NCBI RefSeq assembly: GCF_003334765.1
Contig: NZ_QOWT01000046.1
Source of the DNA: Escherichia coli
GTDB taxonomy: Bacteria; Pseudomonadota; Gammaproteobacteria; Enterobacterales; Enterobacteriaceae
Length of the DNA: 23,492 nucleotides
Strand: one strand, 5' to 3'
Below are positions 12,376 to 17,127 of this stretch, piece by piece. Positions within the stretch are counted from its first letter, which is position 1; each line of letters begins with the position of its first letter. Under the pieces are notes generated by a model. That model was not told where the DNA came from and did not search any database. It saw nothing but the letters and a program-made list of their open reading frames with translations. The translations under genes and the position numbers were made by a program.

Positions 12376-12380
12376 TGTTG

Positions 12381-12420
12381 TTGATTTTTCCCGAATCTGT
12401 GGTAAATTTGCTCTAACGAT
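12381..12420 (+). promoter_or_regulatory. PR'-like late promoter with qut-like pause element
   Basis: TTGATT (-35), 16-nt spacer, extended -10 TGgTAAATT; the initial transcribed TGCTCTAACGATGGG closely matches lambda PR' TGACTCAACGATGGG, including the AACGAT pause motif. Confidence 0.7.
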
Positions 12421-12457
12421 GGGCGTTTTATGCCTGACGTTAGAAGATTTTTTACAC

Positions 12458-12479
12458 CCCGCCGCCTGGCGGGTTTTTT
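12458..12479 (+). terminator. tR'-like intrinsic terminator (short 6S-like transcript of about 65 nt)
   Basis: CCCGCC-GCCT-GGCGGG hairpin followed by TTTTTT. Confidence 0.75.
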
Positions 12480-12601
12480 ATGACTGAAATCGCGTCAGTA
12501 CAGTAAACGCGCTGGTGGCGGTGAATACCTGTCTTTCAGCTTGCTGGCTTTTTCGACAAGAGTTATTGGTGTGTCACGTTAACCGGAAAAGGGAAAAAGA
12601 C

Positions 12602-12799
12602 ATGCTAAAACAGCAGGATATGACAGAAACCGCCAGAGTAGTGTTTAATGAATTAAGCGTTACCGAACCGGCGACAGTCGGGGAGATTGCACAGAATACT
12701 TACCTTTCACGCGAACGCTGCCAGTTAATACTGACCCAGCTGGTTATGGCGGGTCTGGCAGACTATCAGTTCGGTTGTTACAGACGCCTTCCGCAGTGA
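12602..12799 (+). CDS. Hypothetical small protein (65 aa), possible winged-helix
   Basis: Internal ATG of track ORF 12515..12799; moderate SD; TVGEIAQNTYLSRERCQLILTQLVMAGL is HTH-like; stop lies within a terminator hairpin. Confidence 0.4.
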   Translation: MLKQQDMTETARVVFNELSVTEPATVGEIAQNTYLSRERCQLILTQLVMAGLADYQFGCYRRLPQ

Positions 12800-12810
12800 A
12801 GGCTTTTTTA
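12786..12810 (+). terminator. Intrinsic terminator
   Basis: GCCTTC-CGCAGT-GAAGGC followed by TTTTTTATTT. Confidence 0.65.
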
Positions 12811-12949
12811 TTTGTGGTAAATGGGCGGCTGGTGGGTGTTAGGGGCACCCACCAGCCATCTGCTCATGCGTTGGGTTCACAAGCAAACCTCAGGCCCACT
12901 GCTTTGCGCAAAAGCAGAATGAGCCTATCAGAGACAGGCTTAATGATCC

Positions 12950-13999
12950 ATGCTTAATACTGTAAAAATATCCAGTTGTGAGTTAATCAACGCCGACTGC
13001 CTGGAATTTATCCGGTCGTTACCCGAAAATTCTGTTGACCTGATAGTCACGGACCCGCCGTACTTTAAAGTGAAGCCTGAGGGCTGGGATAACCAGTGGA
13101 AGGGCGACGATGATTACCTGAAGTGGCTGGACCAGTGTCTGGCGCAGTTCTGGCGGGTGCTGAAACCTGCCGGAAGTCTTTACCTGTTCTGTGGTCATCG
13201 CCTGGCATCTGATATCGAAATCATGATGCGTGAACGCTTCAGTGTGCTGAACCATATTATCTGGGCGAAGCCGTCCGGACGCTGGAACGGATGCAACAAG
13301 GAAAGCCTGCGGGCGTATTTCCCCGCCACAGAGCGCATTCTGTTCGCGGAACATTATCAGGGGCCGTATCGTCCGAAAGATGCCGGGTATGCGGCGAAGG
13401 GCAGTGCACTGAAACAGCATGTGATGGCCCCGCTGATTTCTTACTTTCGTGATGCGCGCGCGGCCCTGGGGATAACGGCAAAACAGATTGCAGATGCCAC
13501 AGGAAAGAAAAACATGGTGTCGCACTGGTTCAGTGCCAGTCAGTGGCAGCTACCGAACGAAAGCGATTATCTGAAATTACAGTCGCTGTTTGCCCGGGTG
13601 GCAGAAGAGAAACATCAGCGCGGTGAACTGGAAAAGCCCCACCACCAGCTGGTGGATACGTATACGTCACTGAACCGGCAGTATGTGGAGCTGCAGAGTG
13701 AATATAAGCATCTGCGGCGGTATTTTGGTGTGACGGCGCAGGTGCCGTACACGGATGTGTGGACACATAAACCGGTGCAGTTCTATCCCGGGAAACATCC
13801 GTGCGAAAAACCGGCAGAAATGCTGCAGCAGATAATCAGCGCAAGCAGTCGTCCGGGTGACCTGGTTGCAGATTTTTTTATGGGCTCAGGTTCAACGGTA
13901 AAAGCGGCACTGGCGCTCGGGCGTCGTGCGATTGGCGTTGAACTGGAGACCGGACGTTTTGAGCAGACAGTCAGGGAAGTTCAGGATTTAATCGTTTGA
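12950..13999 (+). CDS. Orphan DNA methyltransferase (amino-MTase, DPPY motif; N6-adenine or N4-cytosine)
   Basis: 349 aa; catalytic VTDPPYF near the N-terminus and AdoMet motif FFMGSGST near the C-terminus (beta-class order); no adjacent restriction gene. Confidence 0.85.
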   Translation: MLNTVKISSCELINADCLEFIRSLPENSVDLIVTDPPYFKVKPEGWDNQWKGDDDYLKWLDQCLAQFWRVLKPAGSLYLFCGHRLASDIEIMMRERFSVLNHIIWAKPSGRWNGCNKESLRAYFPATERILFAEHYQGPYRPKDAGYAAKGSALKQHVMAPLISYFRDARAALGITAKQIADATGKKNMVSHWFSASQWQLPNESDYLKLQSLFARVAEEKHQRGELEKPHHQLVDTYTSLNRQYVELQSEYKHLRRYFGVTAQVPYTDVWTHKPVQFYPGKHPCEKPAEMLQQIISASSRPGDLVADFFMGSGSTVKAALALGRRAIGVELETGRFEQTVREVQDLIV

Positions 14000-14313: not shown

Positions 14314-14337
14314 GCTCGCTTTTGCGGGCTTTTTTTT
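14314..14337 (+). terminator. Intrinsic terminator after the tRNA cluster
   Basis: GCTCGC-TTTT-GCGGGC hairpin (one G-U pair) followed by T8. Confidence 0.65.
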
Positions 14338-14343
14338 AAATGT

Positions 14344-14558
14344 CTCACAATTCAGGCGGTTGACTGTTGTCTGGTTTGCGGGGAGTTTGTTAAAAGAAAC
14401 TGGCATGGTGAATCCCCCTGTGCGGAGGGGCAATCAGCGAGTAGGTATATGGGATAATCGCGGATTCAGGTGCTGGTACTGAATTCACCGGGAGGCACCC
14501 GGCACCATGCAATGGCACATAGCGCCACTCTCCAGCCCCTCTCCGGAGGGGCTTTTCT
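14344..14558 (+). repeat. Structured non-coding module, copy A (candidate sRNA or small-ORF cassette)
   Basis: Shares conserved blocks with copy B 468 bp downstream: CTCACAATTCAG, TTGACnGTTG, TTTGTTAAAA, CATGGTGAATCCCCCTGnGCGGAGGGG, TCACCGGGAGGCACCCGGCACCATG, and terminator AGCCCCTCTCCGGAGGGGCTTT (14535-14558). CATGGTG (14404-14410) pairs with CACCATG (14503-14509), enclosing two hairpins. Confidence 0.6.
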
Positions 14559-14747
14559 GTGCCGGATACATCACAGTTTCTGGAACCTTAGGTACTACAG
14601 TATCAGTCAGGGTGCTATATTTTCAGATGTGATGAAAGCCTGTCAGCAGGCAGGGCGTATCGGAAATGACCCAGTAGAGAAAACGTTGACTCAGATACCG
14701 GTGCTGAGTTACCGGGAAACCGGCATCACATGACCGCTATCCTTCCA

Positions 14748-14775
14748 GGCCCATCCGCTCCGGTGGGCCTTTTTA
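14748..14775 (+). terminator. Intrinsic terminator between the two modules
   Basis: GGCCCA-(10-nt loop)-TGGGCC followed by TTTTT. Confidence 0.6.
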
Positions 14776-14811
14776 CTGCAGAAAACAGGTTCCCCGTTAA
14801 ATGCTATGTTG

Positions 14812-15045
14812 CTCACAATTCAGTAAGTTGACAGTTGCCTGTCAGACTGGGCATTTGTTAAAAAAATTTCGCATGGTGAATCCCCCTGAGCGGAGGGGCG
14901 ACTGGTGACGGTATAATCTCTGATTATCAAAACGAGAATGACGCGGGTTTAGTGGCACCGGGCTGAACTCACCGGGAGGCACCCGGCACCATGTGCATGA
15001 TGATACAGATACGCGGCTTTAGCCCCTCTCCGGAGGGGCTTTCTT
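14812..15045 (+). repeat. Structured non-coding module, copy B
   Basis: Same conserved blocks as copy A with divergent linkers; perfect TATAAT at 14912-14917; outer pairing CATGGTG 14872-14878 with CACCATG 14987-14993; terminator at 15022-15045. Confidence 0.6.
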
Positions 15046-15273
15046 ATGGACAAAAAAAGCCCGCGCTGGGAGACGCGGGCGGCAAGGAATAAACAATAAA
15101 ACGTGAAGTAATATTTCAGCTGGCGAATAATACCCCATAGTAATCACTCTGCGCAACTGCGCGGTCTTTTTCGAATTGCGGGCTGTAGTCTCCCTTCTGC
15201 CATTGTCCTGTAACTTCCGGACTTCAGCCTGCTCCTTATCTGACTCACAACATTATCCCGCCCGGGAGGATTC

Positions 15274-17127
15274 ATGGCATTTAAACACTATGACGTGGTC
15301 AGGGCGGCATCGCCGTCAGACCTTGCGAAACGACTGACACAAAAACTGAAGGAGGGCTGGCAGCCGTTTGGTAGTCCGGTGGCCATAACCCCTTATACCC
15401 TGATGCAGGCGATTGCAGCAGAAGGTGATGTGGTCGTCAGTGGTGCAACTGAGCCGGAGTGGTACTACGTCATCGTACTGGCCGGGCAATCCAATGCCAT
15501 GGCTTACGGTGAAGGGCTTCCGCTTCCGGATTCATACGATGCGCCCCATCCGCGCATTAAGCAACTGGCCCGTCGTAACACAGTGACTCCCGGTGGTGAA
15601 GTATGCGTATTTAACGACATCATTCCTGCTGACCATTGTCTGCATGATGTTCAGGATATGAGTACGATTAACCATCCCCGGGCTGACCTGAGCAAAGGGC
15701 AGTACGGCTGTGTCGGACAGGGCTTACATATTGCCAAAAAACTGCTTCCGTATATCCCTAATAATGCGGGGATCCTGCTGGTACCATGCTGTCGTGGTGG
15801 TTCGGCATTCACCCAGGGCACGGAGGGGACATTCAGCGAGTCCACGGGAGCCAGTCAGGATTCGGCTCGCTGGGGAGTGGGTAAGCCGTTATATCAGGAT
15901 CTGCTTTTCCGCACGAAGGCAGCATTGCAGAAAAACCCGAAAAACGTTTTGCTGGCGATATGCTGGATGCAGGGGGAATTCGATATGACGAATGCCAGTT
16001 ACGCCCAGCAGCCAGCAGCATTTCTTGCAATGGTACAGCAGTTCCGTGCTGACCTTGCCGGGCTGGCAGCGCAGTGTCACGGTGGAAGTCCGGCATCAGT
16101 CCCCTGGATTTGTGGCGACACGACATACGCGTGGAAACAAGAACACGGTACGCAATATGAAGTGGTATATGGTGCATATAAAGGTAAAGAATCCCAGCAG
16201 ATTTATTTTGTTCCCTTTATGACCGATGGTAGCGGAGTTAATACACCGACAAACAACCCGTCAGAAGATCCTGATATTGCCGGGTCTGGTTATTACGGTT
16301 CGGCATCCCGAACGAACAAAAACTGGGTATCATCAAATCGCCCGACGCATTTCAGCTCATGGGCGCGTCGTGGCATTATTCCCGATCGTATGGCAACTGC
16401 TATTCTGAACGTAGCCGGTCGCACCTTAGCCTTCATTAGTGGTAAGGCACCGGAAATCAAACCCTCGCCCGGCGGCGACACGCCATCGGGGCCGTCTGAA
16501 GATGCATCCGTACGCACAATCTCCCTGTTGCCGACAGCCGGAGATGCTGCTGCGCAGGGCTGGAGCATTAAGAATGGCGGAATTCAGTTGTCAGATGGTG
16601 TATTTAAGATCACCAAGCAGAGCAATAAAGCCTGGTCCCTGACGCGCCCGGTGGATGACGCAGTCTCCCTGCTGACACGGGGTGGCAGACTGAGCTGTAA
16701 GTTTCGACTGTCAGGCGCACTGACCAACAACCAGTTCGGTCTGGGAATTTATCTGTATACCGATGTAGCGTTACCTGACGTCGTGGCGATGACCGGGACT
16801 GGTAACCCGTTCCTGATGTCGTTCTTCACCCAGACCACAGACGGCAAACTGAATCTGATGCATCACAAGAAAGCCGGAAACACAAAGTTGGGCGAGTTCG
16901 GGAATTACAGTAACGACTGGCAGACGCTGGAGCTGGTGTTCACCGCCGGCAGTGCCACGGTTACTCCGAAACTGAATGGAGTGGCTGGCCCGGCATTCCA
17001 GGTCATAAAAGACAGTCTGACAGTGGGACTAAATGCACTGACGCTGACGGATATTACCAAAAATGCAACGTATGGCGTTGAGATAGAAAGTCTGGTGCTG
17101 GAGATAAATGCACCGGCATCATCATAA
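15274..17127 (+). CDS. NanS-p-like prophage sialate 9-O-acetylesterase (617 aa)
   Basis: GGGAGGA SD; SGNH/SASA-type block [15 protein letters not shown]; N-terminal DUF1737-like region; occupies the slot downstream of the tRNAs where Stx phages carry stx followed by nanS-p. Confidence 0.75.

Follow-up and report, generated by a model that had tools for sequence, protein, structure and literature searches.

Is a prophage late region that is laid out like that of a Shiga toxin (Stx)-converting phage, and that holds no toxin gene, a phage that has recently lost its toxin, a dead remnant, or a late-operon module with other cargo? The question was raised by a stretch of Escherichia coli DNA of 23,492 nucleotides (contig NZ_QOWT01000046.1 of assembly GCF_003334765.1; the whole stretch is called the window here), in which a preliminary description had read positions 12376-17127 as an Stx-phage-type late region without stx: a gene for a Q-like antiterminator, the late promoter PR' with an initial transcribed sequence nearly matching that of phage lambda, the terminator tR', a methylase gene, an Ile/Arg/Arg tRNA trio and a gene for a NanS-p-like esterase, with no toxin open reading frame (ORF) between the tRNAs and the esterase. 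All of these elements were found at the positions given for them (Table 1), and we conclude with high confidence that 11554-17300 is the late-operon leader and the accessory ('moron') region of a resident lambdoid E. coli prophage, which Q would switch at PR'. The homologies, motifs, gene order, junctions and prevalences reported below were computed, and what is said of promoter activity, pausing, termination, Q-dependent read-through, enzyme activities and small RNA (sRNA) expression is drawn from lambda and Stx-phage biology.

Alignment by pairwise blastn with the late regions of Stx phages revealed the synteny that had been proposed from the gene order, since 12458-14336 matched phage Stx2a_WGPS2 at 93.5% identity and 11501-14336, which includes Q and PR', matched Stx2_EH1910 at 93.8%. 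Homology to Stx2a phages, colinear and at 93-94%, begins at Q or at tR', ends at the argO terminator and resumes at the sRNA gene STnc100. The late order Q, PR'/tR', (methylase), ileZ-argN-argO, (stx), STnc100, nanS-p, S-R-Rz was recovered both from colinearity with three Stx2a phages and from annotations. The same 11554-17300 segment occurs at 100% identity in several annotated RefSeq chromosomes, where the genes follow one another as RusA, antitermination protein, 65-amino-acid (aa) hypothetical protein, DNA methyltransferase, tRNA-Ile, tRNA-Arg, tRNA-Arg, SASA-family carbohydrate esterase, holin, YdfR-family protein, lysozyme and lysis protein, and then terminase and portal. At least 80% of the segment is present in 601 of the 5426 complete E. 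coli genomes that form the sample for all prevalence counts given here, and E. coli 042, ATCC 11775 and UTI89-type strains have copies of 99% identity or higher. Equivalent non-Stx lambdoid prophages of enterohaemorrhagic E. coli (EHEC) have been on record since the Sakai genome (PMC4104026, PMC10462455, preprint 10.64898/2026.05.13.724894), and non-Stx prophages that share both the layout and the convergent sRNAs had been described by 2014. The stx-less layout is, in short, already known, widespread and annotated in RefSeq, and the only unexplored items at the locus are two unannotated short RNAs and a tandem STnc100 array.

The gene that ends one base before position 12376 encodes a member of the lambda Q family. 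Its product matched PF03589 in two stretches (3e-27 and 1e-21) and aligned over the whole length with lambda Q (PDB 7UBM, E=3.8e-39; lambda residues 1-113 and 116-207), to which it is 30% identical overall, with the zinc-finger cysteines in register (CKDC...CQRC against CRDC...CGRC in lambda). Between the two PF03589 pieces lies a 68-aa CxxC-rich insertion (residues ~114-181, 11893-12096) that weakly matches the DnaJ CXXCXGXG zinc-finger domain, at a place where lambda Q contains one zinc finger. The family phrog_127 covers the entire length of the protein (E=8e-111), and this 'long Q' is therefore a populated type. The same Q and PR' are located upstream of stx2a in Stx2_EH1910, and a 273-aa Q is reported for the Stx2a prophage of strain 00-3076, as is a rise of nanS-p in Stx2a lysogens under phage-inducing conditions (Pascal et al., PMC10462455).

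The promoter assigned to this Q starts with the -35 hexamer TTGATT (12381-12386) six bases past the Q stop codon, and a 16-bp spacer with a TG near its end (12400-12401) leads to the -10 hexamer TAAATT (12403-12408), giving the extended -10 element TGgTAAATT (12400-12408). The hexamer TGCTCT then separates the -10 from AACGATGGG (12415-12423), and the lambda counterpart reads TAAATT-TGACTC-AACGATGGG with equal spacing; the pause element, AACGAT plus GGG, is identical to that of lambda and at the same distance from the -10. A 21-nt pattern shared with lambda, TAAATTTGNNNNAACGATGGG, occurs once in the window and in none of 100 shuffles. In lambda, the 6S RNA begins with the first A of AACGAT (coordinate 44587), and this hexamer is a sigma70-dependent pause signal at which Q is loaded; by analogy, the transcription start at the locus is predicted at 12415. 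The tR' assignment also held, as the site is a strong terminator that combines a six-pair all-GC stem with six T residues, and the hairpin is kept in the Sakai Sp6 and EH1910 variants, in which a C-to-T change gives a G.U pair. Homology of the Stx2a_WGPS2 type starts exactly at tR' (12458). PR', the pause element and tR' were constant across the variants compared, and the PR'-tR' module is present in 1660 genomes (31%), with Sakai prophage Sp6 carrying it at 94.4% identity.

The short PR'-tR' transcript had been put forward in the preliminary description as a possible regulatory sRNA, and we weighed the reading that this RNA of ~65 nt is a trans-acting, Hfq-dependent sRNA with host targets and hence a functional analogue of StxS. 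The predicted leader does have an sRNA-like form, in which a 5' hairpin and a Rho-independent terminator with U6 flank a 16-nt A/U-rich single-stranded linker (minimum free energy -21.9 kcal/mol, z=-2.8), and close to a third of complete genomes carry its module. StxS provides a precedent, and its authors propose antiterminated promoters as a source of sRNAs (PMC7547250). Moreover, the top 100 Hfq-crosslinked intergenic regions of Sakai include ECs1524...ECs1526, which lies behind this same Q in Sp6 (PMC4104026 Table S1B); the signal is ambiguous in strand and exact position, and the interval also contains an STnc100 copy. Against this, blastn-short of the leader with Sakai Sp5 3800-4610 returned 11-nt chance matches only, so that no StxS homology emerged, and the StxS/DsrA-type rpoS-activating seed GUAACGAA is absent from the entire window, as is GTAACGAA. 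The pause element constrains the first ~23 nt and the terminator takes up the final 22 nt, which would leave ~20 nt free, and lambda 6S RNA, the nearest relative by origin, has no known function (PMC7547250 discussion). What stands of the suggestion is the StxS precedent, as an analogy, and what falls is similarity to StxS in sequence; we regard a trans-acting role of the leader as doubtful. Alignment of the window with Sakai Sp5 does not set in before the 3' part of the methylase gene (13901-14336). An identification of tR' with the StxS terminator was rejected, because the homologous hairpin of Sp5 lies directly after Q933 and the StxS terminator lies in a segment missing from the window.

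In the mechanism that we propose for a Q/PR'-switched late operon, a lambda-family Q would be made from the delayed-early transcript, and polymerase initiating at a constitutive PR' would pause at the sigma70-dependent AACGAT, where Q would engage it. Without Q, transcription would stop at tR' ~65 nt downstream and leave the short leader RNA. With Q, polymerase would pass tR' and six or seven + strand terminators (12786, 14313, 14534, 14747, 15021, 15149, 17210), and read-through would serve the 65-aa ORF, an orphan adenine methyltransferase, tRNAs for rare codons (AUA, CGA, AGA/AGG), the esterase and the lysis genes. Promoters of their own, active in the lysogen as in Sakai, are probable for the STnc100 units and for the convergent RNA next to them. 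Terminator-like sites number 19 in the region against 6.2 expected, with 13 of the 19 on the + strand. Beyond tR', the + strand has five to six such hairpins before the esterase gene and one behind it; these and the 65-aa ORF were not in the preliminary description.

Several observations weigh against a switch operating in this way. A sigma70 consensus scan did not flag PR' (score 8 of 12 at a cut-off of 9), and because it missed the site, PR' was placed by its alignment with lambda. The Q-binding element is not recognisable by sequence, and the spacer between -35 and -10 is unlike that of lambda at most positions; a divergent spacer fits a Q with a specificity of its own. The argN gene has A.A acceptor-stem and A.C T-stem mismatches and a G in place of A58, changes that the Sakai Sp5 copy lacks, and its Rfam score is 43 bits compared with 55-56 bits in Stx phages, so it may be a non-functional, decaying tRNA gene. 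The early region of the prophage is Qin-like, with dicB and DicF. We considered that the prophage might be a cryptic remnant whose Q/PR' switch is dead, so that nothing but the autonomous cargo (the sRNAs, perhaps the tRNAs and the esterase) would count for the host. An early region like that of the defective Qin/Kim class, with dicB, DicF and hokD/sok, agrees with this, as do the signs of decay in argN and the insertion sequence (IS) elements found in the region in some genomes. The ORFs for Q, methylase, esterase, holin, lysozyme, Rz, terminase and portal are nevertheless intact, and PR', the pause element and tR' did not change between variants, which makes a dead switch unlikely and leaves a Q/PR'-switched late operon as the preferred reading.

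The toxin genes themselves would lie, in an Stx2 phage, directly behind the argO terminator, and at this place the stx2AB cassette is cleanly absent from the window between 14336 and 14341. By blastn, 12458-14336 corresponded to Stx2a_WGPS2 2501-4371 and the window resumed, at 14341 or 14813, on position 5707 of that phage; the missing 1335 bp (Stx2a_WGPS2 4372-5706) comprise the stx2 promoter region, stx2A, stx2B and ~40 nt beyond, and this cassette is the only segment missing relative to Stx2a_WGPS2 colinearity. Read directly, the junction in the window consists of the T-run of the argO terminator, AAATGT and then CTCACAATTCAG...; in the Stx2 phage this T-run leads into the stx2 cassette, after which comes GTCACAATTCAG. 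In agreement with the earlier reading that no toxin ORF is present, tblastn with the Stx2A and Stx2B proteins as queries against 14299-15273 gave nothing at E<=10, so that no stx carriage was detected with these queries; an ORF of at least 60 aa with a family match was not found in the same interval, and blastn of the window with Stx2a_WGPS2 4372-5706 gave no match. The empty junction, with argO terminator and STnc100 directly joined, is intact in 1018 genomes, and 803 of the matching records reach 99% identity or more. It is found in the type strain ATCC 11775 and in non-Stx prophages of O26 and O157 strains, among others; 590 genomes have an intact argO-terminator-stx2A junction. That the locus derives from an Stx2-converting phage by recent deletion of stx2AB, a view to which the sharp cassette edges, the colinearity of both flanks with Stx2 phages and the repeated stx loss offered as one explanation for stx-less esterase/sRNA loci (preprint 10.64898/2026.05.13.724894) lend something, is very unlikely, because identity of the flanks is ~93-94% with the best-matching Stx phages of the collection and 99-100% with hundreds of stx-less prophages and because the empty junction, also present in the non-Stx-producing ATCC 11775, outnumbers the stx2-filled one, and tblastn with Stx2A and Stx2B found no remnant in the slot. 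An ancestral empty site and an ancient loss are what is left, and sequence alone does not separate these two.

Our results mark the exact edges of the stx2 cassette (14336 and 14341 in the window) and show that complete E. coli genomes carry the stx-less configuration more often than the one with stx2. The locus is an example of the interchangeable filling of a lambdoid late-operon 'moron' slot, in which one Q/PR' switch and the tRNA and esterase flanks are combined with a cargo that differs by phage, be it Shiga toxin, sRNA genes or other genes, and the junction frequencies bear on how easily toxin genes might move between prophages by recombination in the conserved flanks.

In the window the slot is filled with sRNA genes, which the preliminary description had not listed. 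Two STnc100 units passed the gathering threshold of RF02076 (47 bits) and a degenerate third unit lies between them. Identity with the STnc100 copy that lies behind stx2B in Stx2a_WGPS2 is 69% for unit 1, and unit 2 is 87% identical to the Stx2-phage copy; the units share blocks of 80-100% identity and an identical terminator (14534-14555, 15021-15042), and the direct repeats D1 and D3 link unit 2 with unit 1. An O157:H7 prophage (L008 3288-3510) has a single unit, its unit 1 body being joined to the sequence that follows unit 2 in the window, and on account of the shared terminator and of this single-unit junction the array looks like a product of unequal recombination. The full array, ~2.5 tandem copies, is present in 353 genomes.

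Unit 2 is abutted on the opposite strand by a candidate convergent RNA of ~70 nt, for which promoter-like hexamers and a start site were placed by eye (-35 TTGCGC 15156-15151, -10 TATTAT 15132-15127), and it occurs in 985 genomes (18%), including UTI89 and O157:H7 strains. AsxR in Sakai Sp5 and AgvB in PPyecE_EH1910 abut STnc100 in the same manner; in Sp5, STnc100 (5923-6128, +) and AsxR (6130-6182, -) lie between stx2B and nanS-p, and homology to Sp5 from the convergent -35 to the nanS-p start amounts to 92.9%. The AsxR/AgvB families (RF02703, RF02702) were found in Sp5 and PPyecE_EH1910, but no match to them, or to their conserved 3' part of ~42 nt, appeared in the window even at E<=1, so that position and promoter-upstream region are all that is shared, and the body of the convergent RNA belongs to no Rfam family and is unrelated to AsxR and AgvB. 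A comparison with O157:H7 TB21-1 and Sakai Sp17 gave no named EcOnc RNA as its counterpart, since these loci are not equivalent, and we treated weak sub-threshold Rfam matches to OmrA-B, P26, anti-hemB and Plastid-ycf2 as chance.

The RNA EcOnc27, of ~235-247 nt and on the PR' strand of Sp5, was detected and found to be Hfq-bound in Sakai cultures without phage inducer (PMC4104026), and by our coordinate mapping EcOnc27 is the STnc100 of Sp5. This bears on the proposal of the preliminary description that all cargo downstream of PR' would be under Q antitermination: probably not all of the cargo depends on Q, as STnc100-type RNAs are Hfq-bound without inducer and the convergent RNA has a promoter-like site of its own. 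That the leader (~65 nt) and the convergent RNA (~70 nt) are new trans-acting regulators in many E. coli strains is a tentative idea that we do not favour; if it were true, the leader would, like StxS, be a by-product sRNA but one with another seed, and the convergent RNA would represent a third 'anti-sRNA' type that combines the shared promoter region with a new body.

Upstream of the slot, the methylase gene lies downstream of tR', as had been described, and its product has the motif order of a beta-class enzyme, with IVTDPPYF (residues 32-39) ahead of the FxGxG motif DFFMGSGS (residues 308-315). It matched NCBIfam adenine methyltransferase models, PADLOC MTase_II (E=4e-167) and the PDB entries of M.RsrI and CcrM, is 96% identical in amino acids to the Stx2a_WGPS2 methylase, and is probably of the N6-adenine type. 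No restriction gene is adjacent, which makes it an orphan enzyme, and it presumably protects progeny DNA. The perfect hairpin in the 5' leader of this gene (Table 1) is conserved in Stx2 phages and could be a processing or binding site. Between methylase and stx slot the tRNA genes have the order ileZ-argN-argO; ARAGORN calls the CAT gene Met by its anticodon, whereas the identical gene is tRNA-Ile, ileZ, in RefSeq, and the gene is identical to Sakai ileZ2; the Ile of the preliminary description agrees with the accepted annotation. The codons ATA, AGA, AGG and CGA together account for 27 per 1000 in the phage genes of the window and 78 per 1000 in stx2A. The E. coli average is roughly 11 per 1000.

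Downstream of the slot, the esterase proved NanS-p-like and to have the SGNH fold, as the preliminary description had expected. Its domains scored 2.6e-15 (PF08410), 9.4e-12 (PF03629) and 4.4e-19 (PF20350), it aligned with E. coli NanS (3PT5) at E=4.5e-122 with mostly identical residues, and its C-terminal domain matched the NanS-p domain 6YP6 at E=8.9e-31. The SGNH blocks, GQSN in block I and the His block RPTHFSS, align with those of NanS, and an RPTH variant of block IV is known from the NanS-p of phage 86 (PMC10462455). The enzyme is predicted to deacetylate 9-O-acetyl sialic acids. The gene shares 94.8% DNA identity with its counterpart in Stx2 phage 86; relative to the O157-type (Stx2a-phage) NanS-p, the protein is 56% identical overall, with the first 53 residues nearly identical and the C-terminal domain at ~40%. 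DUF1737 has been described as the capsid-decoration domain of phi24B, a T=9 podovirus (2026 preprint); in the window, DUF1737 (15274-15435) co-occurs with genes for lambda-type terminase, head-tail joining protein, portal and S49 protease (21637-23492).

Other features of the surroundings were noted in passing. The intergenic segment 17128-17245 resembles a structured RNA and has the position of the PasA/PasC sRNAs in prophages of enteropathogenic E. coli and EHEC (preprint 10.64898/2026.05.13.724894). Between Rz and the small terminase subunit, 19597-21226 holds an overlapping tail-to-tail gene pair, consisting of a sce7726-family protein (PADLOC 'cll', 4e-31) and a 'beta' protein (PD-Lambda-2_C, 4e-32), which is probably an anti-phage defence moron. 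Rfam matches to DicF (1419-1470, -) and to the sok antitoxin RNA (9350-9524, +, with a hok-type ORF at 9462-9674) mark the Qin-like early region, and one to IS009 (23273-23471, +) marks a structural-gene sRNA element.

Table 1. Positions in the window of the features discussed in the text, with the evidence for each
Feature	Position	Strand	Evidence or remarks
Antiterminator Q, 273 aa	11554..12375	+	PF03589, lambda Q 7UBM, phrog_127; RefSeq 'antitermination protein'
Late promoter PR'	12381..12423	+	direct alignment with lambda PR'
PR'-tR' leader RNA, predicted, ~65 nt	12415..12479	+	5' hairpin, linker, terminator hairpin, U6
tR' intrinsic terminator	12458..12479	+	stem 12458-12473, CCCGCC-GCCT-GGCGGG, then T6
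Conserved 65-aa ORF	12602..12799	+	phrog_331, E=1.4e-37; annotated in RefSeq and Stx phages
Terminator-like hairpin at end of 65-aa ORF	12786-12803	+	
Perfect 12-bp hairpin, 7-nt loop, no T-run, methylase 5' leader	12827..12857	+	
Beta-class amino-DNA methyltransferase, 349 aa	12950..13999	+	NCBIfam, PADLOC and PDB matches
ileZ, anticodon CAT	14049-14124	+	ARAGORN; RefSeq
argN, Arg TCG	14132-14208	+	ARAGORN
argO, Arg TCT	14222-14298	+	ARAGORN
argO terminator, left edge of stx slot	14313..14338	+	Stx2-phage homology ends at 14336
STnc100 unit 1	14344..14564	+	RF02076 at 14374-14564, 136.3 bits
Degenerate third STnc100-like unit	14603..14776	+	RF02076 30.1 bits, below gathering; repeat family D2
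Terminator-like hairpin of degenerate unit	14747-14770	+	
STnc100 unit 2	14812..15051	+	RF02076 at 14842-15051, 165.4 bits
Convergent RNA candidate, ~70 nt	15052..15156 (RNA 15121 to 15052)	-	strong terminator 15080-15059 and T7
NanS-p-type sialate O-acetylesterase, 617 aa	15274..17127	+	DUF1737, SASA/SGNH, C-terminal jelly roll (DUF6645)
Terminator hairpin, 12-bp, between esterase and holin	17210..17245	+	
Lysis cassette: class II holin, YdfR-family protein, lysozyme, Rz	17277..19180	+	RefSeq, ORFs

Among known systems, the locus is close to the Stx2a phages with a 273-aa Q (Stx2_EH1910, LC567834; the 00-3076 prophage, PMC10462455), with which it shares Q, PR', tR', the 65-aa ORF, a methylase of ~350 aa and ileZ-argN-argO, and STnc100 followed by nanS-p downstream. 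In these phages, however, stx2AB lies between the argO terminator and STnc100, there is one STnc100 copy, and the esterase is ~77% identical at the DNA level in the catalytic domain and has a different C-terminal domain; Stx2_EH1910 in addition has iraM. The non-Stx prophage Sp6 of Sakai resembles the locus in its 273-aa Q (ECs_1524), a PR'-tR' of 94.4% identity, one STnc100, nanS-p (ECs_1527) and lysis genes without stx, but in Sp6 TciA/TerB-like remnants take the place of the 65-aa ORF, methylase and tRNA trio. The NanS-p proteins of 933W, phi24B (gp84) and phage 86 have the same DUF1737, SASA and jelly-roll domains and SGNH blocks as the esterase described here, whose gene sits in a prophage with a lambda-type head and not in a phi24B-type podovirus.

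With lambda (Q, PR', qut, 6S RNA, tR') the locus has in common the Q family, the -10 TAAATT, AACGATGGG at equal spacing and a short RNA that would be terminated early. It differs in that lambda Q, 30% identical, lacks the 68-aa CxxC insertion, in the spacer that contains the Q-binding element, in the length of the leader (~65 nt against 194 nt in lambda) and in the cargo between tR' and holin, which is ~4.8 kb at the locus and ~0.4 kb in lambda. StxS, the PR'-tR' sRNA of Stx1 and Stx2a phages, is likewise a constitutive PR' transcript stopped at tR' in the lysogen, but it is made as a 258-nt primary transcript processed to 74 nt and has an rpoS-activating seed (PMC7547250). Finally, like the pair of EcOnc27/STnc100 with AsxR or AgvB (PMC4104026), the locus has STnc100 on the PR' strand abutting a convergent RNA upstream of nanS-p, and it departs from that pair in its 2.5 tandem units and in a convergent RNA with an unrelated body and terminator.

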